A stretch of 55,614 nucleotides of DNA, taken from an uncultured bacterium (GTDB taxonomy: Bacteria > Oederibacteriota > JAJYGY01 > DAIDJD01). The position numbers and the translations under genes were made by a program. Under the pieces are notes generated by a model. The model saw only the letters and a list, made by a program, of their open reading frames with translations, made no database searches and was not told the DNA's origin. Numbering within the stretch: the stretch's first letter is position 1; each line of letters opens with the position of its first letter. This document shows positions 6,617 to 51,376 of this stretch, piece by piece. The stretch is from positions 1 through 55,614 of the forward strand of contig CAZFUM010000001.1 of the NCBI GenBank assembly GCA_964521965.1, in the 5' to 3' direction.

Positions 6617-7813
6617 ATGAAAACCATAGTCTTACTTTGCGACGGGATGTCTGATCATCCCCAGGCCTCATTGGGCGACAAAACGCCCCTTCAAGTCGCC
6701 AAAAAACCTAACATGGACCGCCTATGTGCTCAGGGCGAAACTGGCCTAGCCAATACAGGTGTGCCAGAATTGCCTATGGGCTCTGACGTGGGTAATATGG
6801 CTGTGCTCGGCTATGACCCGCGAAAATATTACAGTGGTCGCGCTCCATTTGAAGCCCTTAATTTAGGCGTCACGCTCGCTAAAGGCGAAACAGCTTTTCG
6901 CTGCAATTTAGTCCACGTCAAAGATCAAATCATGGACGATTACAGTGCTGGTCATATCAATACCGATGATGCCAAAGAACTCATCAAGATGCTCGATAAG
7001 CGCTTGGGTACGGACAAACTGCGCTTTGTTGCTGGCACCCAATATCGCCACCTCGCCATTTTTAAAGGCGCAGGATTTGAAGAAGCTAAATGCACCCCAC
7101 CTCATGACATTTCAGGTAAGACCATCGAAGAGCATTTGCCCAAAGGAAACAAAGGCAAAGAACTCAAACAGTTGATGCTAGATTCGAATCTTTATCTAGA
7201 AGGTCACGAGGTTAATCGCGAACGCCGGCGCGATGGCAAGAAAACTGCGAATATGATTTGGCTTTGGGGCCAGGGAAAAGCAGTTGAAATGCCAACATTC
7301 AAGTCACGCTTTCAACTGGATGGTGCGGTCATTTCTGCGGTTGACCTCATCAAGGGGCTAGGCCGTTCAATTGGCCTCGATGTTATTGATGTGCCAGGCG
7401 CCACAGGCTGGATCGACACGGATTTTGTCGGCAAGGCCAAAGCTGGCCTAAAGGCCCTGAAAAAGAAAGATTTTCTATACTTGCACCTTGAAGTTACCGA
7501 TGAAGCCGGACATAAAGGCGACACCGAGACCAAGGTTAAGGCCATCGAAGAAATTGACAGCAAGGTACTCGGCACTTTGCTCGAAGGATTGCAAGGCGAA
7601 GAGTATCAAATTCTCATTATTCCTGATCATCCGACACCACTCGAGACTCGCACCCATGCGCTTGAACCCGTGCCTTACGTTTGGTACGACAGCCGACCTG
7701 GCGTTCTCAAGGTGAGCGGTCTAAGCTATGACGAGACCCAAGCCAAATCATCTGGCATCTTTTGGCAAGAAGGCTGGGCTCTTTTGCCCGCCATACTAAA
7801 AGCAAAGGAGTAA
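6617..7813 (+). CDS. Cofactor-independent phosphoglycerate mutase family (archaeal ApgM type); operon context suggests a non-canonical homoserine kinase
   Basis: MKTIVLLCDGMSDHP...PMGSDVGNMAVLGYDP...FRCNLV...HLEVTDEAGHKGD...IIPDHPTP are alkaline-phosphatase-superfamily / ApgM motifs. The gene starts 3 nt after the TPR gene and ends 4 nt before lysC. Confidence 0.85.
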   Translation: MKTIVLLCDGMSDHPQASLGDKTPLQVAKKPNMDRLCAQGETGLANTGVPELPMGSDVGNMAVLGYDPRKYYSGRAPFEALNLGVTLAKGETAFRCNLVHVKDQIMDDYSAGHINTDDAKELIKMLDKRLGTDKLRFVAGTQYRHLAIFKGAGFEEAKCTPPHDISGKTIEEHLPKGNKGKELKQLMLDSNLYLEGHEVNRERRRDGKKTANMIWLWGQGKAVEMPTFKSRFQLDGAVISAVDLIKGLGRSIGLDVIDVPGATGWIDTDFVGKAKAGLKALKKKDFLYLHLEVTDEAGHKGDTETKVKAIEEIDSKVLGTLLEGLQGEEYQILIIPDHPTPLETRTHALEPVPYVWYDSRPGVLKVSGLSYDETQAKSSGIFWQEGWALLPAILKAKE

Positions 7814-12240: not shown

Positions 12241-13629
12241 TTAAGATTTAATTCGCGCCATCAAGCTATCAATTTGACTAACGAAAAGGCCATTATTTTC
12301 CATGACTTCTTTGACCTTTTCAATTGCGTGTATCACGGTGCTGTGATTCTTACCGCCGAAAGCCTCACCGATTTCAGTCAAAGAAGCATTTGTGAGCTCA
12401 CGAGCAATATACATAGCCGCTTGCCGCGCCAGCACAACATTGGCAGTGCGAGTGCGACCACGCAAGTCATTCAGTTTGATATTAAAATGGGTAGCAGCCT
12501 CGTTCTGAATCAAATCCATGCTGACTACACGTGTTTCAGCCTGCAGTACATCATGCAGCACCTGGCGCGAAAGATCGAGATTCAGTTCTTGCTTGGTCAA
12601 TGAAGCAAATGCGGCCACGCGATTCAAGGAACCTTCCATGTCGCGAATATTGCTGCGCATGGATTCAGCCAGCAATAAGATCACATCGTTGGGTACCTGC
12701 AGGCTTTCGATTTCACATTTCTTCTTTAAAATGGCAATTCGAGTTTCAAGATCAGGGGGTTGAATATCCACCGTCAGACCCCATTCAAAACGCGAACGCA
12801 ACTTATCAAAAACCTGAATGTCGCGCGGATGGCTGTCTGAGGTGGCCACGATCTGCTTACTATTTTCAAATAGAGCATTAAACGTATTCAAGAATTCTTG
12901 CTGCATCGAGTCTTTACGTTCCATGAACTGAATATCATCTACGAGCAAAACATCAGTATCACGGAAGGCCATACGAAACTCGTCCATGCGATTCGACCGC
13001 AGGCAACGCACCATTTCATTAAGAAATATCTCAGACGAGACGTACAAGACTCTTAACTCGGGGCGATGGGCCCGAATAAAATTACCAATAGCATGCAGCA
13101 GATGGGTCTTACCCAAGCCGACCTTGCCATAAATAAAGAGGGGGTTGTATGAGAGGCTGGGGGTTTCACCCACAGCCATCGAAGCTGCGCAGGCAAAACG
13201 GTTGCTATTTCCGATGATAAAATTCTCGAATTTATAGCGACTATTAAGGGGTATGCCCTTAAGAATTTCGGCCGAAGGCTGGTAGGCGTCCCTTTGGTCA
13301 GGGCGGGGATTCCGATTAGCAGGGGCACTCGGAGCTTCCAGAGGTGCCTGGCTCAGATTAGTTTCCCAACGTTTACGGCTGCCCTCATCCACCAGGATCC
13401 TAAATTCCACAGGCTTGCCAGCAATTTTGGCTAGACTGTCATGAATTGAAGGTAGGTAGTGAGTTTGCACCCATTCAAGTATAAATTGGCTGGGTACCAG
13501 TATTTGAAGGATTTCGCCTTCCCACTGTGCCGAACTAGGGGCAAACCAAGTGTCGAAAGACGACGAATCGATCTTTGATGCCAAAACGTCAAGCGTTTGG
13601 CGCCAAAGGGTTTCTTTGACCAGGTTCAA
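12241..13629 (-). CDS. dnaA: Chromosomal replication initiator protein DnaA
   Basis: TTG start with GAGG 7 nt upstream. Walker A GKVGLGKTHLLHAIG, Walker B LLVDDIQF, and C-terminal DNA-binding helix AMYIARELTNASLTEIGEAFGGKNHSTVIHA. Confidence 0.95.
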   Translation of the reverse strand: MNLVKETLWRQTLDVLASKIDSSSFDTWFAPSSAQWEGEILQILVPSQFILEWVQTHYLPSIHDSLAKIAGKPVEFRILVDEGSRKRWETNLSQAPLEAPSAPANRNPRPDQRDAYQPSAEILKGIPLNSRYKFENFIIGNSNRFACAASMAVGETPSLSYNPLFIYGKVGLGKTHLLHAIGNFIRAHRPELRVLYVSSEIFLNEMVRCLRSNRMDEFRMAFRDTDVLLVDDIQFMERKDSMQQEFLNTFNALFENSKQIVATSDSHPRDIQVFDKLRSRFEWGLTVDIQPPDLETRIAILKKKCEIESLQVPNDVILLLAESMRSNIRDMEGSLNRVAAFASLTKQELNLDLSRQVLHDVLQAETRVVSMDLIQNEAATHFNIKLNDLRGRTRTANVVLARQAAMYIARELTNASLTEIGEAFGGKNHSTVIHAIEKVKEVMENNGLFVSQIDSLMARIKS

Positions 13630-13740: not shown

Positions 13741-14292
13741 ATGAGCGCCCGCACACCTGAGATCGATCTACACCCACAAGCTATGCCTGGCCAGGGCCCT
13801 GAACAGGCCCTGGCAGCTTGCCGCCATTTTCTTGAAACGACGCATGCGGCAGGGCATGCCGAAGTGCGTATTATCACCGGTTTAGGCCTTCATGGCGATG
13901 GCACGCCCCGCCTGCGCCTGCGCGTTGAAAGGGAAGTGCTGAGCGCCATGGCAATGCGCATCATTGCCACCCACTATGAGCAGAATGGCGCTGTCATCCG
14001 TGTTGAGTTCAATAAGACTGCAGCAAAGCCTAGCGCCCGCCATTTGCGGGCCCTCAAACAGCAAGCGACATTGCATCAGCGCATTCAGCTCGAAGAGCGC
14101 CTACTCGTAGCCTGGGACCGTTTAGATGCCGCCTGGGAAGCTCTTGATCATGGCGATCTGAGACGTGCAAAATTAAAGGCCAATCAGTTAATGAGAGAAT
14201 TTTTTACCGCTAGGCCAGCGCTAACTGAAGATCAGGACGCACTCGAGATCTTCTTGAAAGATATTGAAAAAAAACTCCACGAGGGGGATTAG
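13741..14292 (+). CDS. Smr (small MutS-related) domain protein with a helical C-terminal extension
   Basis: IDLHPQ...ALAACRHFLE...GHAEVRIITGLGLHGDG...LRLRVEREV fits the Smr domain pattern. It is divergent from dnaA. Confidence 0.7.
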   Translation: MSARTPEIDLHPQAMPGQGPEQALAACRHFLETTHAAGHAEVRIITGLGLHGDGTPRLRLRVEREVLSAMAMRIIATHYEQNGAVIRVEFNKTAAKPSARHLRALKQQATLHQRIQLEERLLVAWDRLDAAWEALDHGDLRRAKLKANQLMREFFTARPALTEDQDALEIFLKDIEKKLHEGD

Positions 14293-14293
14293 T

Positions 14294-16354
14294 ATGAAGG
14301 TTTCACATTTTTGGATTAGAGCCCTTCCTGTACTGGCGCTATCGCTAGCTCAGCTTGGACAAAGCCATGCCGTCACCCCGGCCTGGGGCCGTTTTCATCT
14401 GGTAGCGGGTGGCGGTGATCCTGATTTTCGTGACGCGGCGTATGTTGACGCTGCGTTGAATTCACCGACGGCCTCCGCGGTGAGTCAAGATGGCAAGTGG
14501 ATCTACGTAGCCGATTTGGCCAATCATGCTATTCGACGAATTGACGTGGCCCAAGGTTGCAAGGTTGAAACTTTGGCTGGCGGACCTTTGAGCGAAGCTT
14601 GCAAAAGCCCCATGTCGCTGGCCCTGGTTTCTGAGCAGAACATGCTTGTCCTTGCCGCAGGCAAAAAACCTGTATTGATGAGATTGAACGCGAATGGCGG
14701 AAGCCCCAGCGAATGGAAACTTGATGGGAAAGAAGTTCCCTGCGAAGCGGTTGCTGCACATCCTTTGAGGCCCTGGGTCTATGGACTTGATCCGCTTAGT
14801 GGCTCGGTCTATTTCGGGGACCTCGGCAAGAATAGCTTGGTGAAAATCGGCGAGTTTGTTGAATTTAAGCCGGGCCCCGGCCAGGCTCCGCCTGCACCTG
14901 GCCAATGGCAATTGGCGGCCACTGACACTGAGCTCTACGCCCTTGACCGCTACCGTGGCCGACTCTGGCGCCTCTTGCGCGATCAAGGCCCCCTTGTCGG
15001 CAATCCGCGCGAAGACTTCCCCCTCAACGGCACCCTGAAAGCCGAGGGCTTGCAGAGCTGGGGCGAAGCCAGTGTTCGTGGACTTTGCGCAGTTCGTGTT
15101 GAACGTGAGCGCCCATTTTGGGAGATTTGGGTTTGGGATGAATCCAAGCCCGCATTCTGGGTCTATGATCCTCAAACCCTTAAGACCCGTGAAATGTACC
15201 TGCGCACTGCGCAGGGCAACTTTATCAAGCCAAGCGACCCTGCGCCACGCTGGCCCAGAGATACCTACGACATCACCGATGCGACTTATCGGCCCGCGCT
15301 GAAAGGCCCTCTAGGTATCGTGAGTGACCATGCCCGCGGCCTGCTCTATATCGCCGAAAGCAAAGGCAATCGCATGCTGGGACTGCAGCGTCCTGAATGG
15401 ACAGCCGTGAGCCTCACCGAACTTGATGATTACTATCACTATCAACGTATACCAGGGGTTAAGCGCATCTTATTGGTGGGTGACTCCATGGTTCTCTCGG
15501 ATGATTTAGGCGCCAAAGATGAAGCCCGAATCGAAACCGGGTTTGGAAAGAAACTTGAGTTCTACCTCAATCTTTTTTCATCCTTAAAGGGGAAGAACCA
15601 ACGATATCAAGTCCTACAGAAGTCAATGGCGTTGGGCGCCATGGGGGGAGGCGTCAGTGCATATTTAGCGAGCCTGCCTATACCCCAGAACGGAACCGAA
15701 TTTGACGAAGCCATCACTCTGCTCACTTACATGAATGTGAACCTAGAACTACTTTCAATGATACGGACCAAATCGCCCGATGATGTGCCCGGCGCTTTAG
15801 TAGATCCAGCCTACTGGGGCCAGACAACAGACGAACTTCGCGAGAACATGGGACCATTACGGCGCAGCTTCATGGATTGGCTTCGCAAGAATCCAAAAGA
15901 CTATGAAGCCTACCTTCGCACTGATGAAACCGCCTCGCGACTCGACACACCCCAAAGTCCTTTCGCCTTTGACTTATTACAAAAACCCACGTACCAAGCC
16001 TGGGTGTCAAAGGCGCATCAAAAAGTGGTGAAACGCTGCGTTGAAAACATGAAGAAGCGAAAAGCAGGGTATATTCAAATACTGCTGCCGATGCGCAACC
16101 AGCTGGCTCCTGGTGAAAATATCAAAGGAGGCTACAGTTTCAGCGACACGACCCAAGCGCCATGGTTCGACGCTGAGCTTGCCAAGATCGCCAAAGAAGA
16201 AGGCGTACCCTTTATCAGTTTGACTGATGCCATGCGCTCGCTTGAACCAAACGTATTTCCTTTGGTCGGCTACAATACGCACCATTACCGTACACAGGGA
16301 ATTGAATGGGCGGCCTTGATTACGGCCTGGACATATATCGAAAGACAGCTTTGA
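14294..16354 (+). CDS. Secreted NHL-repeat beta-propeller protein fused to a C-terminal SGNH/GDSL-like (AlgX/AlgJ-like) hydrolase/acyltransferase domain
   Basis: ATG 14294 follows GAGGGGGA, 1 nt after the Smr stop. Signal peptide MKVSHFWIRALPVLALSLAQLGQSHA. NHL-like units (GKWIYVADLANHAIRRID; RGLLYIAESKGNRMLGL). SGNH block I ILLVGDSMVLS and a distal ...YNTHHYRTQG. Confidence 0.8.
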   Translation: MKVSHFWIRALPVLALSLAQLGQSHAVTPAWGRFHLVAGGGDPDFRDAAYVDAALNSPTASAVSQDGKWIYVADLANHAIRRIDVAQGCKVETLAGGPLSEACKSPMSLALVSEQNMLVLAAGKKPVLMRLNANGGSPSEWKLDGKEVPCEAVAAHPLRPWVYGLDPLSGSVYFGDLGKNSLVKIGEFVEFKPGPGQAPPAPGQWQLAATDTELYALDRYRGRLWRLLRDQGPLVGNPREDFPLNGTLKAEGLQSWGEASVRGLCAVRVERERPFWEIWVWDESKPAFWVYDPQTLKTREMYLRTAQGNFIKPSDPAPRWPRDTYDITDATYRPALKGPLGIVSDHARGLLYIAESKGNRMLGLQRPEWTAVSLTELDDYYHYQRIPGVKRILLVGDSMVLSDDLGAKDEARIETGFGKKLEFYLNLFSSLKGKNQRYQVLQKSMALGAMGGGVSAYLASLPIPQNGTEFDEAITLLTYMNVNLELLSMIRTKSPDDVPGALVDPAYWGQTTDELRENMGPLRRSFMDWLRKNPKDYEAYLRTDETASRLDTPQSPFAFDLLQKPTYQAWVSKAHQKVVKRCVENMKKRKAGYIQILLPMRNQLAPGENIKGGYSFSDTTQAPWFDAELAKIAKEEGVPFISLTDAMRSLEPNVFPLVGYNTHHYRTQGIEWAALITAWTYIERQL

Positions 16355-17328
16355 AGCACGCTGCCCGGGCATTTTGCATCTGCCTGCTCACAGCTGAAAT
16401 CGGGCTACGCTTGGCAAGCTCTAGCTTCTGGCAAGAATGGGGCAGGGCAGAACTTGTGGGCGCATCCAGTTTGACAGATTATGTCACTGCCGTACGCATA
16501 GCAGTTCCAAGCCAAACTCACGTTTGGCTTTTTGGTGACAGTGTGCTTTACGGTAGTGCCCTGCTCGAGCACCACACGCCCCATTGGCGCGAGAAGACAG
16601 TTGGCAGCTATTTAAGGCGACAGGATTCTCAACGAAACTGGAGTGAAATATCAGCCGAAGGCTTGCTGATTCCTGATTTGAGGGCGATTGTTCAAATAGC
16701 GCAACCTGCAGCTCGTGATACGCTCATCATAGAACTTAACTACCGAATGTTCAGCGCTGACGCAGGCCAAATTGAGAATTCTTATTCACGCAATTTTCTA
16801 GCGCCTGCATATCAATCAGATTGGGAAGAGAATCTTGCTGCCTATTCAGCCTATTATCGGTACGCCCAAATTGCCCGATATCTTTTTTGGCAACCATCAC
16901 GCGAGACACGCGTGGCCCAATGGCTGCGTTTCGGCAAGGCTCTTGGCACAGGGCCCGCTGTAGACGACGAGCTCAGAGCCAATCTGTTAGCGATGAAAAT
17001 CTCACCCTATTATTCTGCGCCGGCTCTGGCGCCCCAGCATGCAGGTCTAGCCGCACTGAATGCCTGGTTGCCTGAATTGCTCCAACAAAAAGGCAGGGTA
17101 CTGGTCTTCCTCACCCCACAAAATTGGGACTTAATCGGCGAGTATACCGATGAAAAGGCTTATGCCAAAAACCGAAAAATCCTGAAAAATTTGCCTTGGC
17201 CCAAGAATGTAATCTATGTGGATTGGGCTGACAGAAAACCCAGTCAAGGACGTTTCTTAGATCATTGCCATCTAGACGAAGTCGGTAATCAGGAGCTGGC
17301 GACATGGCTGCTCAAGGAGCTGCCATGA
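16306..17328 (+). CDS. Membrane-anchored SGNH-family protein (DltD/AlgJ/PatB-like O-acyltransferase/esterase)
   Basis: SGNH block I VWLFGDSVLYGS and block V FLDHCHLDEVGNQELA. N-terminal hydrophobic segment AFCICLLTAEIGL. ATG 16306 has an AGGGA SD. TTG 16351, which overlaps the upstream stop, is an alternative start. Confidence 0.75.
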   Translation: MGGLDYGLDIYRKTALKHAARAFCICLLTAEIGLRLASSSFWQEWGRAELVGASSLTDYVTAVRIAVPSQTHVWLFGDSVLYGSALLEHHTPHWREKTVGSYLRRQDSQRNWSEISAEGLLIPDLRAIVQIAQPAARDTLIIELNYRMFSADAGQIENSYSRNFLAPAYQSDWEENLAAYSAYYRYAQIARYLFWQPSRETRVAQWLRFGKALGTGPAVDDELRANLLAMKISPYYSAPALAPQHAGLAALNAWLPELLQQKGRVLVFLTPQNWDLIGEYTDEKAYAKNRKILKNLPWPKNVIYVDWADRKPSQGRFLDHCHLDEVGNQELATWLLKELP

Positions 17329-17435
17329 AGTGGCGCAATTGGCTCATAGGTGTGGCGGCATTCTTGCTGCTGACAGCGCTATTGGTCTGGGGCGCTGGCT
17401 TTGCCGCTTCTAAATTCATATACGTGGACTTTTAG
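17325..17435 (+). CDS. DltX-like 36-aa single-pass membrane peptide (not in the ORF track)
   Basis: AAGGAG lies 5 nt upstream. The ATG overlaps the upstream TGA (ATGA), and its TAG abuts the ATG of the MBOAT gene. Translation is MKWRNWLIGVAAFLLLTALLVWGAGFAASKFIYVDF*. Confidence 0.6.
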   Translation: MKWRNWLIGVAAFLLLTALLVWGAGFAASKFIYVDF

Positions 17436-18575
17436 ATGATATTCAATACGCCCTGGTTCATCGCGTTTCTCATCATCTACTATGCGATGACCTGGCTCAC
17501 GCCAGGCCCCAAAACACGCTATGCATTGTTATTGATAGCTTGCGCTATTTTTCACACGCATTTCGCTGGACCGTCTGGTGTGGCCCCCATCATCGTCATG
17601 GCGGTCAGCACATACTATATCGCTGGGCCACTTTCACGAGCCCAGGGCGCGCGGCGCATGCACTACCTTTTGCTTGGCCTAGCCGTGCCGGTAGCAGGGC
17701 TGATCTGGTACAAATATCGCGGATTCTTTGGCATGGGCCAGGTTGGCGCTATGCCACTGGCGATTTCGTTTTTCACTTTTGAATTTGCGCATTATCTCAC
17801 TGACATTTACAAGGGTTCGCAGCCCATACGCAATGCGGGTGACTTCACGCTGTTTAGCATCTATTTTCCGTCTATCGTCTCGGGTCCTATCAAGCGCTAT
17901 CAGCCATTCACCGAAAGTCTGAAGCGGGGCATTCCCCATCCCATGCATAATCCTTTGGCCCTCAAAGGCGCAGGCCGCGTGCTGCTAGGTTTTTCTAAGA
18001 AAATGCTCGTGGCCGATAATTGCAGCGTAGCTATCGCTTTACTTGAGAAAGCAGATCAATGGAACACGTCATCTGTCGTTGCCTTAATCGTTTTGCTCAC
18101 CATTCGTATTCTCTTTGACTTTTCTGGCTATTCAGATATCGCCATTGGTCTGGCAGAAATTTGCGGCATTGAAGTGCCGCAGAATTTCAATTTTCCCTAT
18201 GCTGCACGCAACATTCAAGATTTCTGGCGGCGGTGGCATATGTCGCTGTCGAGTTGGATACGCGACTATATTTACATACCGTTGGGTGGTTCACGCGCCG
18301 CACCCTGGCGTCGAGCTCTTAATCTCTTACTCGCCATGGGCCTTTGTGGGCTCTGGCATGGGGCGGCCTGGAACTTTGTGCTCTGGGGCCTTTACCATGG
18401 CATGGGAATGAGCGTTCACGCTCTGTGGGCCAAACGCTTTCCGGCTCCTGAAGGCCGAGATCCATTGCGTTTTGTTTTTTCGTGGGCGCTAACCCTCGTT
18501 TTTGTGGCCTGGGGTTGGTTGCTCTTTACCTATCCATTGGCTAAAGTAATCGAAATTTCCCGCCATCTGTTTTGA
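17436..18575 (+). CDS. MBOAT-family membrane-bound O-acyltransferase (DltB/AlgI/PatA-like)
   Basis: FFTFEFAHYLTDIYKG, SIVSGPIKRY, FWRRWHMSLSSWIRDYIYIPLGG, and GLWHGAAWNFVLWGLYHG with the conserved His. At 379 aa it is closer to DltB size than to AlgI. Confidence 0.9.
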   Translation: MIFNTPWFIAFLIIYYAMTWLTPGPKTRYALLLIACAIFHTHFAGPSGVAPIIVMAVSTYYIAGPLSRAQGARRMHYLLLGLAVPVAGLIWYKYRGFFGMGQVGAMPLAISFFTFEFAHYLTDIYKGSQPIRNAGDFTLFSIYFPSIVSGPIKRYQPFTESLKRGIPHPMHNPLALKGAGRVLLGFSKKMLVADNCSVAIALLEKADQWNTSSVVALIVLLTIRILFDFSGYSDIAIGLAEICGIEVPQNFNFPYAARNIQDFWRRWHMSLSSWIRDYIYIPLGGSRAAPWRRALNLLLAMGLCGLWHGAAWNFVLWGLYHGMGMSVHALWAKRFPAPEGRDPLRFVFSWALTLVFVAWGWLLFTYPLAKVIEISRHLF

Positions 18576-18588
18576 GGCCTGCCTAAAA

Positions 18589-20123
<1,535 letters not shown>

Positions 20124-23551: not shown

Positions 23552-25507
23552 TCAATTCAAGATTCTTCGCACATCTGCACGACTTGGATCAAGTTCAAGT
23601 ACTTTCTGAAAGGCTTGGCGTCCCTCGGCGGGGCGCCCCGTCTTAAAATACGTTACCCCTAGGTTATACCAAGCATCAATATAGCCTGGCTTATTACTAA
23701 GACTTTGGCGGTAGGCAAGTTCGGCTTCTTGCATGCGCCCCATGCGGTGCAGGGCATTGCCGCGGTTATAGGGAAATTCGTGGCTGCTCGCATCCCAAAC
23801 TTCAGCGTCCTCATAAAGTTTGAGCGCATCGGCCAAGGCGCCGGATTCTTCAGCTAAGGTGCCCAAAGAATTATGAAAAATCGCAAAATCATTCACCATC
23901 AGCTTGCGACTATTAACGTCTAGCTTTGGATCACGGTAGCCACGCTTGCGAACTAAGGCCAGATTGTGGCGGCCACGCTGAAGCCAATCTTTAGGTGCCG
24001 CTGCAGCCAAAACCAGGGGCTGATAGATTTGACCCGCAGGTAGCAGGCGCCAGCCATTCAGCTCTTTGGGCAACTCGTTATAGGTGAAAAACTGGGGCTT
24101 TTCGGCATTGAGGCGAAGCAGTGCTTCGAGTATGGCAGGGGTAGATTCATTGCCAGCGCGAGTATCCACCCAAGGCAGCCGCATAGCCGGAAAACGCCGA
24201 GCCAAATCTTCACGTACCCAACGCATAGGCAATAACGGCACACCCACGATTGCCACGTCCCTGCGTTCTCCTTTGACAAACTGGGCATACCAAAGGGGAA
24301 ATACCGACGCATCGCCCGAAGTATAAAGCACTGAGTTGCGTGGCAGAGCTGCCAAAACATCTCGGGCTCTGTCGAGCGCCATGAAATATTGCGAGCGATC
24401 GCGCTTAGAAAATTGGGTTGCACCCACAGTCAAGAGACCTGCGCTGCATATAATTAAGAAGGCCGGGCTCCATTTTTTTGGCAACTTACTAAAAAGCCAT
24501 GCTGCAAGAAGGCCTTGGCAAAGATAAGCAGGGAACAAATAGGGTTCCATAATTTCAAGTCGTTCTGCCGCCAGATTGAGATAAAACGTCACAGCCAGCA
24601 ATGGAGCCAACACCCCCAGCACAAGGGCGTTGACCCAAGCATCGCGGCGCCCATGCCATGCTGCCCAAGCAGCCAAGGGCAGCGCCACATAATGGCCTTC
24701 ACGCAAGAGATAGCCCAACGCCTCACGTAATTGCTGCCAGGAGCCTGCCAGACTTCGCGTGCCCTCGGCAGCGGCATATTGCGCTCTTAGAAAATAAAAA
24801 AAGAAATCTCCCAAGGAATTAAATTCGCCCCAATGCACCGGTGGACTTGATGCTGAACGCAAAGGGAAATAGGCGTATAACGTGAGTCCTGGCAAAAGCA
24901 GCCAGCTTTGACGCAACCATAACCGCCACGCCAAAGGCTTGCCTTGGCGAGCCAAGATGAAGAATGCGGGTGCTAGCACGAGTTGACTCATGTAGTGGTG
25001 AGCCGCGCCCAGGCCTAACAAAAGCCAGAAAGCAGCGTACCGCTGCTTCTCACGCATGACCAGAGTTAGGACCAAAATTTCTGCCAGGGTGATGGCATTG
25101 TTCAAGCCATAAACCGAGCCTTTGGCGATCAAAGCCTGGCGCCAAAAAGCGGGCCCAAGCCCAATTGCGATAGCAGCCAAAATGGCTAACCAGAAGTTTC
25201 GGGTTAGAGACAAAACCCAAAAACCTAGCAGCCCAGCGGTTAGAGAAAACCAAAAAGCCGAAGCCGCGGCCAATCGCCAGCCCGCATCACCTAGAGGCAG
25301 GATGCAGGCCGTACGGTGCAACAACGTGTGAAGGGGATATCCGGGCGGATGGCCTATGCTAAGGGTCCAGGCCAGGGTCGCGGTCTCGCCGCTGTCATCG
25401 AGATAAATTGACGACGAAAGCGTCTGCAGGTAAAAAACGAAAACAGTCAAAAAAAGAGCCGCCCCCAGGGCGGCTCTTTTTTGAATTGGGATACTATCGG
25501 GCGTCAT
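23552..25507 (-). CDS. DUF2723 / TMEM260-like polytopic GT-C-fold glycosyltransferase with C-terminal TPR repeats
   Basis: The N-terminal YLDDSGETATLAWTLSIGHPPGYPLHTLL motif is typical of DUF2723. At least 10 TM segments. C-terminal TPRs (RGNALHRMGRMQEAELAYRQSLSNKPGYIDAWYNLGVTYFKTGR). Confidence 0.8.
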   Translation of the reverse strand: MTPDSIPIQKRAALGAALFLTVFVFYLQTLSSSIYLDDSGETATLAWTLSIGHPPGYPLHTLLHRTACILPLGDAGWRLAAASAFWFSLTAGLLGFWVLSLTRNFWLAILAAIAIGLGPAFWRQALIAKGSVYGLNNAITLAEILVLTLVMREKQRYAAFWLLLGLGAAHHYMSQLVLAPAFFILARQGKPLAWRLWLRQSWLLLPGLTLYAYFPLRSASSPPVHWGEFNSLGDFFFYFLRAQYAAAEGTRSLAGSWQQLREALGYLLREGHYVALPLAAWAAWHGRRDAWVNALVLGVLAPLLAVTFYLNLAAERLEIMEPYLFPAYLCQGLLAAWLFSKLPKKWSPAFLIICSAGLLTVGATQFSKRDRSQYFMALDRARDVLAALPRNSVLYTSGDASVFPLWYAQFVKGERRDVAIVGVPLLPMRWVREDLARRFPAMRLPWVDTRAGNESTPAILEALLRLNAEKPQFFTYNELPKELNGWRLLPAGQIYQPLVLAAAAPKDWLQRGRHNLALVRKRGYRDPKLDVNSRKLMVNDFAIFHNSLGTLAEESGALADALKLYEDAEVWDASSHEFPYNRGNALHRMGRMQEAELAYRQSLSNKPGYIDAWYNLGVTYFKTGRPAEGRQAFQKVLELDPSRADVRRILN

Positions 25508-25915: not shown

Positions 25916-25933
25916 GCCTGCCTCAAAAAATAG

Positions 25934-26017
25934 TGCCGAAGGAGAGACTCGAACTCTCATGCCCTTGCGGACGGAGGATTTTGAGTCCTCTGCGTCTACC
26001 AGTTCCACCACTTCGGC
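25934..26017 (-). tRNA. tRNA-Leu (CAA), class II with a long variable arm
   Basis: The reverse complement is GCCGAAGTGGTGGAACTGGTAGACGCAGAGGACTCAAAATCCTCCGTCCGCAAGGGCATGAGAGTTCGAGTCTCTCCTTCGGCA. Acceptor GCCGAAG/CTTCGGC. Anticodon loop CTCAAAA. CCA is not encoded. Confidence 0.9.
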
Positions 26018-36718: not shown

Positions 36719-37738
36719 ATGTCCCAGCAAGTCCGGGTCGCGGTTGACGCCATGACTTCTGAGAAGGGCGTGCTGCAAGCTGTCTTGGGGGCTCAACTGG
36801 CACTGCAAGAGTTCGCCGACCTTAAGGTGATACTTGTCGGTGATCCAACCCAACTCGAACCCCTGGTTCATGCCCAACGTTTCGGCGATCGGCTTGAAAT
36901 AGTACCCTCCCGAGAAACGATTGGCATGGAAGACGAGCCGGGAGCAGCTTTCAAAGCTAAGAAAGATGCTTCGGTATCTGTAGCCAATAGACTAGTTGCT
37001 GAGGGCAAAGCAGACGCCGTTATGTCGCCCGGTAACACAGGTGCCAGCTTGACTGCCTCTACATTAATACTTGGACGTGTGAAAGGCGTACGCCGCCCTG
37101 CTATCATGACCCTTCTACCTTCGAGCCACGGCAGTACGGCATTACTTGATTCAGGTGCCGTGGTGGATTGCCGCCCCGAAGACCTGCTGCAGTGGGGCCT
37201 CATGGGCTCCATTTATATGAAGGAAGTACGGGGCATTCAACAACCCCGGGTCGGTTTGCTCTCAATTGGCGAGGAAGATCATAAGGGCAACGCCCTCACT
37301 AAAGAATCACTGCCCCTTCTCAAGCAAACCAACCTTAATTTTATCGGCAATATTGAAGGGCGCGACCTCTTTAACGGCCATTGTGATGTGGCGGTCTGCG
37401 ACGGATTTGTTGGAAATGTCGTGCTTAAGACAGCGGAGGGCCTGGCAAAAATGGTCCTTAACGGCCTCAAAGAATCTTTTTTAAAAAGCAATTTTCTGGT
37501 CAAGATTGGGGGCTTTTTATCAAAGCCTGCCTTCCATTCTTTTCGCAAACGAGTCAGTGCTGACGATGCCGGTGGAGCCGTGCTGCTGGGTGTTAACGGC
37601 GTCAGCGTGATCGCACATGGTGCAGCTAATAAAATCATGATTAAAAACGCCATTCGCGTAGCGCATGAATGTGTGCGCCTAGGCGTCATTGGCAAAATTA
37701 AAATTGCATTAGAAAACAGCCCTGAGGTTGTCGCTTGA
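36719..37738 (+). CDS. plsX: Phosphate acyltransferase PlsX
   Basis: VAVDAMTSEKG, SPGNTGA, LLSIGEE, and GFVGNVVLKTAEG motifs. Confidence 0.95.
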   Translation: MSQQVRVAVDAMTSEKGVLQAVLGAQLALQEFADLKVILVGDPTQLEPLVHAQRFGDRLEIVPSRETIGMEDEPGAAFKAKKDASVSVANRLVAEGKADAVMSPGNTGASLTASTLILGRVKGVRRPAIMTLLPSSHGSTALLDSGAVVDCRPEDLLQWGLMGSIYMKEVRGIQQPRVGLLSIGEEDHKGNALTKESLPLLKQTNLNFIGNIEGRDLFNGHCDVAVCDGFVGNVVLKTAEGLAKMVLNGLKESFLKSNFLVKIGGFLSKPAFHSFRKRVSADDAGGAVLLGVNGVSVIAHGAANKIMIKNAIRVAHECVRLGVIGKIKIALENSPEVVA

Positions 37739-38721
37739 GCCGGCCATTTGCCAGCATTTTGGGCACGGGCTGCTATTTGCCGCCCAAGATACTTACCAAT
37801 GCCGATCTTGAAAAGCGCGTAGACACCACCGACGAATGGATAGTCAGCCGGACCGGTATTCGTGAACGCCGCATGGCCGCCCCCGAAGAGCATGTTTCTG
37901 ACATGGCCAGCAAGGCTGCCGAAAAAGCGCTGGCAGCGGCCGGGTTGAGGGCCAGCGACATCGACGCTATCCTTGTTGCCACTCTCACCCCCGACTATAC
38001 CTGGCCTGCCGCAGCCTGCCTAATTCAGCGCAAGCTAGGCGCAACCCAGGCCTACGCTCTCGATATCTCAGCCGCCTGTTCAGGCTTTGTGTATGCCCTC
38101 AGCTTGGCAGAAGGCATGATAGCCGCAGGCAATGCAAAGTATGTTCTGGTGATTGGCGCCGAAAAGCTAACTTCTTTAGTAGATTGGACCGACCGTAACA
38201 CCTGCGTGCTCTTTGGCGATGGAGCAGGCGCTGCCGTAGTCGGACCCGTGCAGGCTCACCGGAAGATCTTAGCTACCCATCTAGGTTCGGATGGCAATGC
38301 GGTCGAGCTCCTCTATCAACCCGGCGGCGGGACCCTTTGTCCAGCCAGCATAAAAAGCATCGAAGAAAAGCAGCACTACCTCAAGATGAACGGCAAAGAG
38401 GTCTTTAAATTCGCTGTGCGAGTCATGGTCGAAGCTTCTGAAGCCGTAATGAAAAAAGCGGGCCTCGAATTAAAAGATGTCTCGCTCTTCATCCCTCATC
38501 AAGCCAATATACGTATTATTGAATCGGCCGCTGACCGCCTCGGCTTGCCGCCTGACAAGGTCTTCATCAATTTAGATCGCTATGGCAACACCTCGGCTGC
38601 CTCGGTAGCCATTGCCTTAGACGAAGCAGCCGAGCAGGGAAGAATCAAACAGGGTGACAAGGTCGTCTTAGTTGCTTTTGGTGCTGGCCTGACATGGGCC
38701 TCTGCTGCATTGGAATGGTAG
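37735..38721 (+). CDS. fabH: 3-oxoacyl-ACP synthase III
   Basis: TTG start overlaps the plsX stop (TTGA). TSDEWI-type motif TTDEWIVSRTGIRERR, active-site AACSGF, HQAN, and GNTSAAS. Confidence 0.95.
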   Translation: MSRPFASILGTGCYLPPKILTNADLEKRVDTTDEWIVSRTGIRERRMAAPEEHVSDMASKAAEKALAAAGLRASDIDAILVATLTPDYTWPAAACLIQRKLGATQAYALDISAACSGFVYALSLAEGMIAAGNAKYVLVIGAEKLTSLVDWTDRNTCVLFGDGAGAAVVGPVQAHRKILATHLGSDGNAVELLYQPGGGTLCPASIKSIEEKQHYLKMNGKEVFKFAVRVMVEASEAVMKKAGLELKDVSLFIPHQANIRIIESAADRLGLPPDKVFINLDRYGNTSAASVAIALDEAAEQGRIKQGDKVVLVAFGAGLTWASAALEW

Positions 38722-38722
38722 C

Positions 38723-39655
38723 ATGAGCATTGCTTATCTCTTCCCGGGCCAAGGTTCGCAGACTGTCGGTATGGCTGCAGATTTAGCAAGCAGCCACCCC
38801 CTTGCCTTTCGCTTACTCGACCAAGCCAATGAAGTGCTTGGACGGGACCTCAAACAGATTATACTTACAGGACCTGACGAAAGCCTCAAAGACACTCGCA
38901 ACACCCAACCGGCTCTTTACGTCGCAAACCTAGCCTATTACGAAGCCGCCAAAAACTTTTTACCGCCGGCCGATTTTGTGGCGGGCCATTCCTTGGGCGA
39001 GTACTGTGCCCTCACCGTCGCCGGAGTATTCAGCTTTGAAGATGGACTAAAACTGGTTGAAGCTCGAGCTCAAGCTATGTTTGAAGCAGGTCAAAGCAGC
39101 GGCGGTGCCATGTCAGCTGTACTAGGCTTAGACGACGACAAGGTTGAAGCCGCTTGTCGCGAAGCTAGCTCTGCTGGCGGCGTAGTTGTTCCGGCCAATT
39201 TTAATTCTCCGGGCCAGGTCGTGATTTCAGGTGACCCAGTCACCGTGGCCAAAGCCGTTGCGCTCTGCAAGGCGGCGGGTGCCCTTAAATGTGTGCCTCT
39301 CGCTGTATCAGGCGCTTTTCACTCACCCCTCATGAAGCCTGCAGGCCAAAAACTCGAAGGCGCTATGACTCAAGTGGTCTGGCAGCCACCCCGCATTAAG
39401 GTCGTGGCCAATGTCGACGCTGCGCCTTATGCTGATGCTGAGGCAGTCAAGCGAGGCTTAGTTGCGCAAATCAGCTCACCGGTGCGCTGGACCGCCAGCA
39501 TGAATTATCTCGAGGGAGCAGGCCTGACCCAATATTTTGAAATCGGCCCAGGACGCGTGTTGGCTGGCTTAATGAAAAAAATCAACAAGACTGCCCAAGT
39601 TGTCAATTTAGGCGATTCGGCCTCGCTGGCGTCAGCCACCGCGCCCGCGACCTAA
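38723..39655 (+). CDS. fabD: Malonyl-CoA:ACP transacylase
   Basis: FPGQGSQ, active-site GHSLGEY, and VSGAFHSPLM. Confidence 0.95.
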   Translation: MSIAYLFPGQGSQTVGMAADLASSHPLAFRLLDQANEVLGRDLKQIILTGPDESLKDTRNTQPALYVANLAYYEAAKNFLPPADFVAGHSLGEYCALTVAGVFSFEDGLKLVEARAQAMFEAGQSSGGAMSAVLGLDDDKVEAACREASSAGGVVVPANFNSPGQVVISGDPVTVAKAVALCKAAGALKCVPLAVSGAFHSPLMKPAGQKLEGAMTQVVWQPPRIKVVANVDAAPYADAEAVKRGLVAQISSPVRWTASMNYLEGAGLTQYFEIGPGRVLAGLMKKINKTAQVVNLGDSASLASATAPAT

Positions 39656-39667
39656 GGGGATATAGAT

Positions 39668-40417
39668 ATGTCACAGGATCTCAAAGACAAAGTTGCCATT
39701 GTTACAGGCGGCACCCAAGGCATTGGCCTAGAAATCGCTAAGCTTTTTGCCATACATGGTGCTCAGGTACTTATCAGCGGCCGTACACAAGATAAGGCCA
39801 TAACTGTCGCTGAGCAAATATCCAAAGAAAACAACGCCAACGTGGCCGGAATTCAAGCCGATGTGGCAAAATCAAGCGATGTCGAGGCTATGGTGAACAT
39901 GGCTCTTGACAAGTTCAAACGCATCGATATCTTAGTCAACAACGCAGGCATTACTCGTGACAACCTGCTCCTTCGCATGACCGAGCAAGATTTTGACGAG
40001 GTGGTGGCAACCAACCTTAAAGGTGCTTTTCTTTGCTGCAAGGCCGTCTGCCGTACTATGCTCAAGCAACGCCAAGGCAGCATGATCAATATTTCAAGCG
40101 TCGTGGGCCTAAGCGGCAATGCCGGGCAAGCCAACTACGCGGCCACCAAGGCCGGCCTGATCGGGCTGACCAAGTCACTGGCCAAAGAACTAGCTTCACG
40201 TACAATTCGCGTTAATGCCATCGCGCCGGGCTTCATTCGCACCGCGATGACAGACGATCTAAGTGAAGAGGCCCGAAAAGCCTTGTTAGATCAAATTCCC
40301 CTAGGCCGCTTTGGCGAAGGCAGTGAAATTGCCGAGGTTGCCTTGTTTTTAGGTTCTGATCGTTCCCGCTATGTCACCGGGCAGGTGCTCCGGATTGACG
40401 GCGGCATGATGATGTAA
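39668..40417 (+). CDS. fabG: 3-oxoacyl-ACP reductase
   Basis: [14 protein letters not shown], the catalytic S...YAATKAG motif, and [10 protein letters not shown]. Confidence 0.95.
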
Positions 40418-40436
40418 CCAACGAGAGGAGACAAGC

Positions 40437-40673
40437 GTGGCCATCGAAGAAAAGGTCAAAGAGATCATCGTCGAACAGCTCGGTGTAGAGGCTGCCCAGG
40501 TTAAAGAAGACGCTTCATTCATCGACGATCTTGGCGCGGACTCCCTCGATACCGTCGAGCTGGTGATGGCGTTCGAAGAAGAATTCAATATCGAGATTCC
40601 TGACGAAGAGGCCGAGAAAATTAAGAAGGTTTCTGACGCCATCGATTACATCAAGGCTCACGCCAAATCGTGA
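40437..40673 (+). CDS. acpP: Acyl carrier protein
   Basis: GTG start after GAGAGGAG. Phosphopantetheine site [20 protein letters not shown]. Confidence 0.95.
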
Positions 40674-40712
40674 GCCCTTCCCATGACGGGAAGCGTTCAT
40701 GATGGCAAGGCA

Positions 40713-40755
40713 AACGCGATCCGGCGCGCAATAGCAGGGATCGCGTTTTCTTTTG
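40713..40755 (+). terminator. Intra-operon hairpin plus T-tract between acpP and fabF (probable partial terminator/attenuator)
   Basis: A 10-bp perfect stem, aacgcgatcc (40713-40722) / ggatcgcgtt (40738-40747), is followed by ttcttttg. A second small hairpin, cttccc-atgac-gggaag, lies just upstream. Confidence 0.5.
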
Positions 40756-40777
40756 AATCTTTGCTGAGGACAACAAG

Positions 40778-42031
40778 ATGTTCCAACGGCGAATAGTGGT
40801 CACGGGTCTGGGTGCTGTTACGCCCCTAGGCCTTGATGTTGAAACCTCATTCAAAGGGTTACTTGAGGGCAAATCGGGCGTAACCGTTTTTGACCGTTTT
40901 GACATGACCGGCTATGCTGCCAAGATTGCGGGGACGGTCAAGGGTTTCGAACTTTCGCCCAGCATCGCTGACAAAAAAGAAGCACGTCGCATGGACACCT
41001 TTGTTCAATTTGCGGTGGCTTGCGCAGACCAAGCTATTCGCGATTCAGGCATCGACCTTGACAAAGTTGATCGTGATCGTTTTGGAGCCCTCATCGGCAG
41101 CGGCATTGGCGGCTTAGCTGTCATCGAAGAACAAAATAGAATCATCTATGAAAAAGGCCCAGGAAGAGTGAATCCATTTCTCATTCCTATGCTCATCGTT
41201 AACATGGCCCCGGGGCATGTGGCCATAAAATTTGGCCTTCGTGGCCCCAATATCTGCGTGGCCACGGCTTGCGCCACCGGTAACCACGCTATTGGCGATG
41301 CTGCTTGGATCATTTCTCGCGGCGATGCCGACATCATGATCGCCGGCGGCACAGAGGCTGCCATCACGCCTTTGGGCTTGGCTGGTTTTTGTTCAGCTCG
41401 TGCTCTTTCTACGCGTAATGATTCGCCTGAAACCGCCAGCCGTCCTTTTGACAGGGATCGGGATGGTTTTGTCATGGGCGAAGGCTGCGGCCTACTTATT
41501 CTTGAAGAACTAGAACACGCTAAAAAGCGTGGCGCTAAGATTTATGCCGAAATCGGGGGCTATGGCCTGTCGGATGACGCTCATCACATGACCGCCCCCC
41601 CTGAAGATGGCAACGGCGCATACCGGGCCATGAAAATGGCATTGGATAACGCCAAGGTTCGGCCCGAAGAAGTCGATTATGTAAATGCTCACGGAACCTC
41701 AACGCCCCTCGGCGACAAGGCTGAGACTTTGGCCATTTGCCGACTCTTTGGCGAACATGCGACATCTAAGAAACTTTGGATTTCATCGACCAAATCAATG
41801 ACGGGACATCTCTTGGGTGCAGCGGGTGGCGTTGAATCTGTGGCCTGCATTAAGATGTTACAAACCGGAAAAATTCATCCCACCATTAATCAGTTCAATA
41901 GCGATCCCGATTGCGGTCTAGACTATGTGCCTAATCAAGCCCGCGAAAAGAAGATCAAATACGCCCTGAATAATTCATTTGGCTTCGGCGGCGTGAACGC
42001 CTGTCTTTTGCTGAAAACCTTCGAGGACTAA
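40778..42031 (+). CDS. fabF: 3-oxoacyl-ACP synthase II
   Basis: [15 protein letters not shown], active-site [18 protein letters not shown], and SFGFGGVNA. Confidence 0.95.
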
Positions 42032-43309: not shown

Positions 43310-43861
43310 ATGAGCAATATCAGCCTTTCGCAGCTGCTTGCCGATAAATTGGGTACCCTGCGTTTGAATCTTGAGATTCAGTCGGGCGCCGAAGTGCAAG
43401 TCATCGCTCCGGCCTCGTTGCTCACAGCCATTGATTTACTCAAACAAGACGAAGCCTTAGCTTTCGATCTGCTTATGGATTTAGCGGGCGCGGACTATTC
43501 AAAGTATCCCAACGCCCCTAGCAATCCTCTTTGCGTTTCCTACCAGCTTTATTCGACTCGCCACAACCAGCGGGCTTGGCTCAAGGTTTACCTGCCCATG
43601 CAGGGGCCTGAAATAGCCTCACTGTGCGCTGTCTTTGCCGCAGCCAATTGGTACGAACGAGAATGTTGGGATATGTACGGCGTGGTCTTTAAGGGCCATC
43701 CCCATCTCAAACGCATCTTACTTTACGAAGAATTCGAAGGCCATCCGCTGCGCAAAGACTATCCCATTATGAAAATGCAGCCGCTCATTCCGATGCGCAA
43801 CGCTGTGGACTATGAAGCCGTCGCTCAGCAGGCCCGCCGCGAAAACGTGGAAGGGAGCTGA
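43310..43861 (+). CDS. nuoC: NADH-quinone oxidoreductase subunit C
   Basis: ANWYERECWDMYGVVFKGHPHLKRILL...HPLRKDYP. Confidence 0.92.
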   Translation: MSNISLSQLLADKLGTLRLNLEIQSGAEVQVIAPASLLTAIDLLKQDEALAFDLLMDLAGADYSKYPNAPSNPLCVSYQLYSTRHNQRAWLKVYLPMQGPEIASLCAVFAAANWYERECWDMYGVVFKGHPHLKRILLYEEFEGHPLRKDYPIMKMQPLIPMRNAVDYEAVAQQARRENVEGS

Positions 43862-43867
43862 GCCGCC

Positions 43868-45097
43868 GTGCCCATGGAACTCAAAGAAAAGTTTCCCGAA
43901 AGAGCCGCCGATCGCGAGGACTTTGATATTCAGCCCATGATTATCAATATGGGGCCTTCGCATCCCGCCATGCATGGCACCGTCAAAATGGTGCTAAAAC
44001 TAGATGGCGAGACGGTTGTGGGCGCCGAGATGGACATCGGCTATTTGCATCGCTGCTTCGAAAAAACTGTCGAGTGCAAGACTTGGAACCAAGCTATTCC
44101 CTACACAGACCGCCTCAACTACGTCAGCCCCCTCATCAATAACGTGGGCTACGCGATGGCCGTCGAAAAACTTCTGGGCATCACCGTACCCGAGCGCTGC
44201 CAGTACATTCGCGTTGTCATGAGTGAGTTATCTCGCGTGGGCGATCACCTGACCTGCATCGGTGCATCCGCCATGGAGTTAGGCGCACTCACCCCCTTTC
44301 TCTATTTCGTCAAGGCCCGCGAGTACACTTGGCAGCTCATCGAAGAAGTTACTGGTGCGCGCTTGACAATTTCTTACACCCGCGTGGGCGGTGTGGTGCG
44401 CGATCTTCCCGCTAGTTTTGGCGAACGCTATGCCTATGTAGAGAGCAAAGTTTACGAAGCCGTGAGCGAAGTACGCGCTTTGCTCGACCACAACCGCATC
44501 TTTATTGACCGCATGAAGGGCATTGGCATCATGCCCAAAGAGAGAGCGCTAAGTTACGGTATGACAGGCCCCTTTGCACGCGCGTCGGGTCTGCCTTATG
44601 ACGTCCGCAAGGCACAGCCTTATCTCATTTATGACCGCATGAAATTCGAGGTGCCCACCCGCAGCGCAGGCGACAATTACGCTCGCTATGAGGTGCGACT
44701 AGCCGAGATCGAACAGAGCCTAAGCATCATTCGCCAATGTTTAGCGCAAATGCCAGAAGGCCCTATACGCAGCAAAGACACGCGCGTAAGCCTGCCCCGC
44801 AAGAAAGAGGTCTATTCAAACATCGAAGCCCTTATGAACCATTTCAAGCTCATCATGCCTGGCCACGGCATACGCCCTGAAGCTGGCGAAGTGTACATGG
44901 CCGTTGAAGGCGGCAATGGCGAACTCGGTTTCTGGGTTATTTCTGACGGTTCAGACCGGCCTTACCGCGTGCGCGTGCGCCCGCCCTGCTTTCCCATTAC
45001 TTCTGCAGTCGAAGAACTGGTGCTCGGCGAGCAACTCTCTGACATCATCCCAATCTTTGGCAGCGTCAACATGATTGGCGGAGAGATCGACCGATGA
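43868..45097 (+). CDS. nuoD: NADH-quinone oxidoreductase subunit D
   Basis: NMGPSHPAMHGT, DIGYLHRCFEK, and the C-terminal VRVRPPCFP...GSVNMIGGEIDR. Confidence 0.95.
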   Translation: MPMELKEKFPERAADREDFDIQPMIINMGPSHPAMHGTVKMVLKLDGETVVGAEMDIGYLHRCFEKTVECKTWNQAIPYTDRLNYVSPLINNVGYAMAVEKLLGITVPERCQYIRVVMSELSRVGDHLTCIGASAMELGALTPFLYFVKAREYTWQLIEEVTGARLTISYTRVGGVVRDLPASFGERYAYVESKVYEAVSEVRALLDHNRIFIDRMKGIGIMPKERALSYGMTGPFARASGLPYDVRKAQPYLIYDRMKFEVPTRSAGDNYARYEVRLAEIEQSLSIIRQCLAQMPEGPIRSKDTRVSLPRKKEVYSNIEALMNHFKLIMPGHGIRPEAGEVYMAVEGGNGELGFWVISDGSDRPYRVRVRPPCFPITSAVEELVLGEQLSDIIPIFGSVNMIGGEIDR

Positions 45098-46886: not shown

Positions 46887-46899
46887 GGCAGGGAAGCGC

Positions 46900-48459: not shown

Positions 48460-48460
48460 A

Positions 48461-49606: not shown

Positions 49607-49607
49607 T

Positions 49608-51359: not shown

Positions 51360-51376
51360 GTCCAAGGGAGTTTGAA

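Follow-up and report, generated by a model that had tools for sequence, protein, structure and literature searches.

The Tyr residue of the FXYXXF "acyl shuttle" motif of DltX carries D-alanine, and the equivalent Tyr, situated at the C-terminus of PatA, is acetylated by PatA itself, with O-acetyl-FIYANF serving as a donor for PatB (PMC12148441). This way of passing acyl groups across the bacterial membrane was established only recently, for Dlt in 2023 and for PatAB in 2025. A separate microprotein is described for Dlt only, while other MBOAT-SGNH pathways have the motif fused to the MBOAT (PMC12148441). DltX of B. thuringiensis has the sequence GFHDTNTSTFIYNEF, with the tail ...TSTFIYNEF (PMC5541007), and the tail of L. 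plantarum DltX is NQAKFIYNEF (PMC13653941). Here we describe a 36-codon micro-open reading frame (micro-ORF) located between an SGNH-like gene and an MBOAT gene in a stretch of 55,614 nucleotides (nt) from an uncultured Oederibacteriota bacterium (contig CAZFUM010000001.1, assembly GCA_964521965.1; the whole stretch is called the window below). Very likely, it encodes a stand-alone single-pass acyl-shuttle microprotein that supplies the motif in trans to a short MBOAT. The initial annotation of the locus had given FIYNEF as the DltX ending, which is correct for both B. thuringiensis (PMC5541007) and L. plantarum (PMC13653941), and had mentioned the DltX Tyr as the reported acyl carrier, which is borne out by PMC12148441. 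Moreover, it had proposed a tyrosine acyl shuttle in an uncharacterised envelope-acylation pathway, and this proposal is supported by the motif, by its conservation, and by the either/or distribution described below.

The micro-ORF, as read directly from the sequence, occupies positions 17325..17435 of the forward strand (36 codons and TAG), and its product is MKWRNWLIGVAAFLLLTALLVWGAGFAASKFIYVDF (36 amino acids, aa). It is tightly coupled to both neighbouring genes, and the catalytic residues of both encoded enzymes are conserved. In particular, the ATG (17325-17327) shares the tetranucleotide ATGA with the TGA (17326-17328) of the 340-aa SGNH gene, the Shine-Dalgarno sequence AAGGAG (17314..17319, forward strand) lies 5 nt before the ATG, and the TAG (17433-17435) is followed with zero spacer by the ATG of the MBOAT gene at 17436. 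The coordinates and all three of these features had been given in the initial annotation exactly as they are found in the sequence. The peptide, as read from its sequence, has a basic N-terminus (K2, R4), a putative transmembrane (TM) helix at approximately residues 6-25, and an 11-residue tail FAASKFIYVDF. The succession of K2/R4, about 20 hydrophobic residues and a tail appears to agree with the layout of B. thuringiensis DltX (PMC5541007). The hexapeptide FIYVDF (17415..17432, forward strand) corresponds to the FxYxxF acyl-shuttle motif as defined in PMC12148441, with Tyr33 encoded by the codon 17421-17423. As is functionally characteristic of DltX, the motif stands at the extreme C-terminus, immediately before the stop codon, and its Tyr is invariant.

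An alternative in-frame ATG at 17304 would yield a 43-aa product (with additional MAAQGAA at the N-terminus). It is preceded by its own AGGAG, 8 nt upstream, and this is the version given by the ORF listing. Still, the start at 17325 is favoured, since in one related locus (L081) the homologous start, preceded by CAGGAGCTGCC-ATG, is the sole one available, the start of the micro-ORF shares 4 nt with the SGNH stop in each of the seven gene-called relatives, and a 36-aa relative with 89% identity (P0121) is called from the equivalent of 17325. Initiation at both 17304 and 17325 is conceivable, but the homologues argue for 17325.

To avoid circularity, a metagenome scan was seeded with the alignment of the SGNH partner alone (patterns F[LF]DHCHL and L[LF]GDSV), and it yielded 64 loci. 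In 56 of them the SGNH gene is directly followed by a small ORF ending with S-[K/R/G]-F-[I/L]-Y-[V/A]-D-F. The remaining eight comprise two contigs that end too early and six distant SGNH relatives adjacent to a long AlgI/PatA-type MBOAT. The micro-ORF is also present in four loci beyond the SGNH-seeded 56. As the initial annotation had anticipated, every related locus with an SGNH gene and a short MBOAT keeps it uninterrupted and in synteny, and the C-terminal F-I-Y-x-[DE]-F shows hardly any variation, with F, Y, D and F of the hexapeptide in 60 of 60 unique tails. The TM segment is variable in sequence but retains its hydrophobicity, with invariant Gly at -28, Phe at -24 and Leu at -17.

The micro-ORF is a real gene under purifying selection as a protein, since amino acids are conserved while third codon positions and stop codons vary. 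The nucleotide entropy at the first, second and third codon positions is 0.83/0.38/1.40 for the 60 unique 96-nt tails, and 0.20/0.12/1.15 for the last nine codons. The tails use both Tyr codons (TAT 32, TAC 25) and both Asp codons (GAT 29, GAC 27), and all three stop codons are found (TAA 19, TGA 25, TAG 13). In most loci the gap between the micro-ORF and the MBOAT gene is 0-30 nt, and the micro-ORF is kept also where 213-2092 nt separate them (L098, L147, L137). The motif signal is not due to chance: a single instance of [FYW][ILVMF]Y..[FYW]-stop is found across the six frames of the 55.6-kb window, and F[ILVM]Y..F-stop in short ORFs occurs five times in 891 kb of control loci, two of these five being real shuttle tails themselves.

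Two other interpretations of the same nucleotides were rejected. An antisense 35-aa ORF (17312-17419) is not supported, as the codon periodicity matches the forward frame, and a frameshift fusion of the SGNH protein with the peptide is incompatible with the topology. The scan for promoters and terminators in the 13.5-19.3 kb region gave counts within the shuffle expectation.

Direct searches with the peptide found one relative, and thus the family was reached via the neighbouring genes. The peptide from the window has no entry in the protein collection searched. The 43-aa version as a sequence query found a single near-identical peptide, and phmmer against 1.84 billion representatives returned the near-identical peptide and two repeat or low-complexity artefacts, with nothing else. 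The sequence search of PDB gave a spurious match to a light-harvesting protein alone. Public gene calls label the peptides of relatives merely as "hypothetical protein".

The decisive comparative result is the complementarity between the micro-ORF and the MBOAT's C-terminal end: the motif sits on one or the other, never on both and never on neither. Each of the 52 loci whose MBOAT is of the short type (379-405 aa for the complete sequences) carries the micro-ORF, and no complete short MBOAT has the FxYxxF ending. Conversely, all five complete long MBOATs adjacent to distant SGNH relatives end with FIYF[EQ]F, and there is no micro-ORF in these loci. The control set was provided by a genome scan with the MBOAT alignment, whose patterns proved over-general, so that 78 of the 80 loci obtained did not belong to the short family, nearly all being of the long AlgI type. 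In this set, 74 of the 80 MBOATs have about 470 aa and end with F-[IL]-Y-F-[RQ]-F. Long MBOATs extend for about 90 residues past the end of the short form, up to FIYF[RQE]F, and this extension matches the "two additional TM helices" of PMC12148441.

Several individual loci show other arrangements. In six loci (L139:754-3203 and L140-L144), distant SGNH relatives with 23-28% identity adjoin long MBOATs ending with FIYF[EQ]F, and the micro-ORF and two further partner genes of the cassette, NHL and 137-aa (see below), were not detected there; these loci look like an unsplit counterpart of the module. In a more distant locus, from a Verrucomicrobiae metagenome-assembled genome (MAG; L001:6001-8578), the order of genes is permuted, with a short MBOAT (398 aa) followed by a 436-aa SGNH-like protein (GGNS...DRSH) and a 57-aa micro-ORF, whose start overlaps the SGNH stop (ATGA) and whose product ends with PFIYVAF, without the acidic residue at +2. 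In a Bacteroidaceae MAG (L080:6001-7470) a long-type MBOAT is broken by an in-frame stop at 7366-7368, and the 33 codons past this stop encode the last TM helix and ...SSFIYFNF; this may reflect an error in sequencing, a pseudogene, or a shuttle that is beginning to split off at the downstream end.

In 43 out of 51 unique loci (17433-17438 in the window; L004, L083-L148), the number of nt between the micro-ORF stop and the MBOAT start is divisible by 3 (0, 3, 6, 9, 12, 15, 18, 21, 30, 132 or 213), and therefore the micro-ORF and the MBOAT gene are usually in one frame across a single stop codon. The spacer sequences vary inside each gap-length class, and, if counted by class, 11 are in-frame versus 6 out-of-frame. 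None of the 120 best homologues is a fused MBOAT of about 440 aa. Read-through, a constraint on reinitiation, and a historical relic are the possible causes of this bias; occasional read-through might produce a tethered X-MBOAT form.

The MBOAT gene itself (17436..18575, forward strand) encodes a 379-aa protein, assigned to the MBOAT superfamily by a match to PF03062 (1.3e-24, 87.6 bits with the cut-off of 27) and by the conserved His. The latter, His308 in the WHG motif, is invariant in the alignment and aligns with H336 of DltB. The protein ends with ...VIEISRHLF at residue 379, without the FxYxxF tail and the two additional C-terminal helices known from AlgI/PatA-type MBOATs, so that the arrangement characteristic of non-Dlt pathways, where two further TM helices of the MBOAT carry the motif at its C-terminus, is not observed here. 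The AlphaFold2 (AF2) model of the MBOAT is superimposed on DltB (6bug) with the TM-score of 0.70. The best NCBIfam model is TIGR04091 (DltB), with 198 bits against the equivalog cut-off of 375, and short relatives have similar scores (176-195 bits), as do, nearly, the long AlgI/PatA-type MBOATs (155-175 bits). Moreover, the catalytic core scores 175-202 bits (39-47% identity) against AlgI/PatA-type enzymes, versus 121 bits (29% identity) against DltB, and thus, judging by sequence comparison, the MBOAT is nearer to AlgI/PatA-type enzymes than to DltB. Nearly all of the best 120 MBOAT relatives listed (representatives of 90%-identity clusters) are of the short form, and the system with the separate microprotein is widespread in metagenomes.

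The upstream gene (16306..17328, forward strand) encodes a membrane-anchored SGNH-like transferase of 340 aa with an N-terminal anchor, G77-D78-S79, N145 and D319-x-x-H322. The SGNH blocks (Ser79, Asn145, D319/H322) are invariant in the alignments, in agreement with the SGNH/GDSL fold. Neither a Pfam match nor an NCBIfam DltD match was found for this protein; since the fold and the residues fit in the absence of a Pfam profile match, it represents a divergent subfamily. The best Foldseek matches of its AF2 model (predicted local distance difference test score, pLDDT, 70) are DltD structures 3bma, 7dxm and 6o93 (E 4e-5 to 7e-4, TM-score 0.40-0.46), with many GDSL esterases (probability 1.00) ranked behind them. 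Like DltD, it has an N-terminal anchor, an early Ser of GDS, and D-x-x-H near the C-terminus, while its identity with DltD is 11-15%. Taken together, the MBOAT, the SGNH protein and FxYxxF are contiguous at 16306-18575, which corresponds to the definition of an MBOAT-SGNH pathway in PMC12148441.

The locus thus shares features with two types of known systems. As in the case of DltX (PF12459/DUF3687), the peptide is a microprotein of at most 50 aa with a basic N-terminus, one putative TM helix, a short, presumably extracytoplasmic tail and the C-terminal F-I-Y-x-[D/E]-F (FIYVDF here, FIYNEF in DltX), and it is encoded next to an SGNH partner whose nearest solved structure is DltD and a short MBOAT that has no motif fused to it. 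On the other hand, the gene order is SGNH-X-MBOAT (or MBOAT-SGNH-X) rather than X-A-B-C-D, the module contains neither the DltA ligase nor the DltC carrier, the labelled relatives are outside Firmicutes, the MBOAT does not qualify as a DltB equivalog, and D-alanine is probably not the group transferred. With PatA/PatB, AlgI/AlgJ(/F/X) and WssH/WssI the locus shares the MBOAT core, an SGNH partner, FxYxxF and, probably, acetyl-CoA as the donor, and the second SGNH-like protein and the small secreted protein of the cassette, as parts of a periplasmic module of several components, are reminiscent of AlgJ/AlgX/AlgF. However, the cassette MBOAT is about 90 residues shorter than those of the PatA, AlgI and WssH types and the motif is encoded by a separate gene, whereas in those systems it is fused and there is no DltX-like microprotein (PMC12148441). 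Searches of full-text literature found no report of a non-Dlt shuttle microprotein, though one may be mentioned in the original 2023 Dlt paper.

Genuine Dlt-type aminoacylation (D-alanylation or similar), in which the MBOAT would be a DltB orthologue supplied by a DltC-like carrier that a DltA-like ligase loads, with the genes for these two in another part of the genome, is unlikely. It is true that the sizes of the three proteins resemble those of DltD, DltX and DltB, that the K-F-I-Y-x-[D/E]-F tail has the acidic +2 residue in common with DltX, and that the best NCBIfam model of the MBOAT and the best fold match of its partner are, respectively, DltB and DltD. Still, the DltB score is about as high for long AlgI/PatA-type MBOATs and is well below the cut-off, the core of the MBOAT resembles these enzymes more than DltB, and the donor machinery was not observed. 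No adenylating (AMP-binding) enzyme was found among the window ORFs scanned, which included all those of at least 400 aa, and the 392 kb of related loci contain no carrier-protein gene close to a cassette, the only one found being the housekeeping acpP of the fab operon in the window, at a distance of 23 kb. AMP-binding or PP-binding neighbours were not found in the gene-called relatives either. Hence dltA and dltC are encoded with the micro-ORF neither in or beside the window cassette nor in gene-called relatives, as the initial annotation had stated for the adjacent genes.

The peptide might also be a membrane anchor, an assembly factor or a regulator of the SGNH protein and the MBOAT, with Tyr carrying no acyl group and the enzymes acting directly; this seems improbable. 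The shuttle function is assigned purely by analogy, and the invariant residues of the TM segment (Gly -28, Phe -24, Leu -17) would fit helix packing. However, the most conserved part of the peptide is the presumably extracytoplasmic hexapeptide, its pattern is identical to that of the experimentally proven shuttle (PMC12148441), and the either/or distribution of the motif is predicted by a catalytic module acting in trans rather than by a mere anchor. As for the absence of a functional protein, that is, a chance ORF or an upstream ORF (uORF) providing translational coupling between the SGNH and MBOAT genes, it could be suggested by the very short length of the ORF, by its overlapping or abutting both neighbours, and by its being left uncalled in at least one NCBI MAG annotation (L083), but it is effectively refuted by the comparative data. 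Amino acids are conserved with third positions and stop codons varying freely, and the ORF is retained both in the different gene order of L001 and at the larger distances from the MBOAT gene in L098, L147 and L137.

Several observations weigh against the acyl-shuttle interpretation. As far as can be judged from sequence profiles, homology to DltX is not detectable beyond the hexapeptide. The Pfam scan of the peptide (E<=1) gave a spurious match to PufX and none to PF12459/DUF3687, no DltX model of NCBIfam matched, the profile of the micro-family scored 3.9 bits against B. thuringiensis DltX, with shuffled decoys reaching 7.0, and the same profile found nothing above shuffled decoys in the C-termini of long MBOATs. 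Due to the lack of a profile signal, we claim an analogy and a common motif rather than homology, so that in the description of the peptide as DltX-like the architecture and the motif hold, while sequence homology to the DltX family does not. Moreover, in the AF2 model of an artificial fusion of the peptide and the MBOAT the MBOAT part is good (TM-score 0.70 with DltB), but pLDDT of the peptide is 34-52, and hence there is no structural support for docking. The structural match of the SGNH partner to DltD is weak (TM-score 0.44, model pLDDT 70). The absence of dltA and dltC covers 55 kb of the genome, and their copies may be located elsewhere. Finally, the published biochemistry of Dlt and PatAB is the source of the proposed acyl-Tyr chemistry, topology, donor and acceptor, and we infer the translation of the micro-ORF.

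If the peptide is indeed an acyl shuttle, the following scheme may be proposed. The short MBOAT would have lost, or would never have had, the two C-terminal helices that bear the motif in AlgI/PatA/WssH-type enzymes, and therefore the motif would be supplied in trans, as it is by DltX for DltB. The MBOAT (His308 region) would take the acyl group from a cytoplasmic donor, most likely acetyl-CoA, given that the module lacks a ligase and a carrier and that the MBOAT core is nearer to the AlgI/PatA type. It would then esterify Tyr33 at the outer face of the inner membrane, the peptide being oriented with the N-terminus inside and the C-terminus outside. The acyl-Tyr tail would swing to the active site of the anchored SGNH enzyme and acylate Ser79, and this enzyme would pass the group on to an acceptor in the periplasm or the envelope, possibly with the assistance of the NHL-SGNH and 137-aa proteins described below. 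One may speculate that the acceptor is a housekeeping envelope polymer, as there is no conserved polysaccharide-synthesis context.

These data suggest a trans-acting Tyr acyl-shuttle microprotein outside Dlt, belonging to an uncharacterised module for envelope acylation in bacteria from soil and peat. The peptide family would be a natural counter-example to the rule that the microprotein is restricted to Dlt (PMC12148441), with its labelled relatives belonging to diderm phyla, and the shuttle would be a portable module, either fused or split. It would also explain the missing catalytic tail in the "short AlgI-like" class of MBOATs, and it flags a gene of 36-57 aa that annotation pipelines miss or call "hypothetical protein". 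With acetyl-CoA as the donor, should this be the case, trans-shuttling would be simpler to reconstitute in vitro than with Dlt. Moreover, the system points to a modification of the envelope in soil and peat lineages that have received little study.

The cassette contains two more genes. The gene at 14264..16354 (forward strand) encodes a 696-aa secreted protein with a second SGNH-like domain in its C-terminal half (GDS 406-408, His674, from a three-way alignment) and a weak N-terminal NHL match suggesting a beta-propeller in this part of the protein, and it co-occurs with the cassette in many loci. If started at the annotated TTG, this gene overlaps the Smr-domain gene, and its 3' end shares 49 nt with the 340-aa ORF; therefore, one or both starts may be located further downstream. 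The gene at 18589..19002 (forward strand) encodes a 137-aa protein with an N-terminal hydrophobic stretch that resembles, by eye, a signal peptide; tblastn matches are found downstream of the MBOAT gene in many loci, and gene-called relatives have genes for 136-157-aa proteins in this position. Neither of the two proteins matched the AlgX, AlgF or PatB families. The set of cassette genes recurs in relatives in the same or a slightly permuted order. A bolder variant, which we hold only tentatively and regard as rather doubtful, is a five-gene envelope-acylation module (NHL-SGNH, SGNH, microprotein, short MBOAT, 137-aa protein) with the shuttle freed independently of Dlt, where one acyl-peptide could serve two SGNH transferases, or where a non-acetyl group could be transferred to a novel acceptor.

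The genes flanking the cassette differ between loci, and thus the module looks self-contained. In the window these are dnaA (12241-13629, reverse strand), just upstream of the cassette region, the Smr-domain gene, mdh, sucCD, and tRNA-Cys(GCA) (19056-19132), 54 nt past the last gene of the cassette; mdh and sucCD are putative names for three ORFs, based on where these lie and on their translated sequences. Among the relatives, those that carry a label come from Thermoanaerobaculia (Acidobacteriota) and Verrucomicrobiae MAGs. The diderm context claimed in the initial annotation was based on complex I and Omp85, of which the former is confirmed by the nuo operon (43310-54840), while no match to the Omp85 family was found in the ORFs scanned. 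The fatty-acid synthesis cluster is located at 36719-42031 (plsX, fabH, fabD and fabF identified by Pfam, and acpP, 40440-40661, by tblastn), and tRNA-Leu(CAA) at 25933-26017 (reverse strand). The gene at 23552-25507 (reverse strand) encodes a 651-aa protein with a TMEM260-like protein O-mannosyltransferase domain and C-terminal TPR repeats, which is another candidate for envelope modification or protein glycosylation in the vicinity of the cassette.

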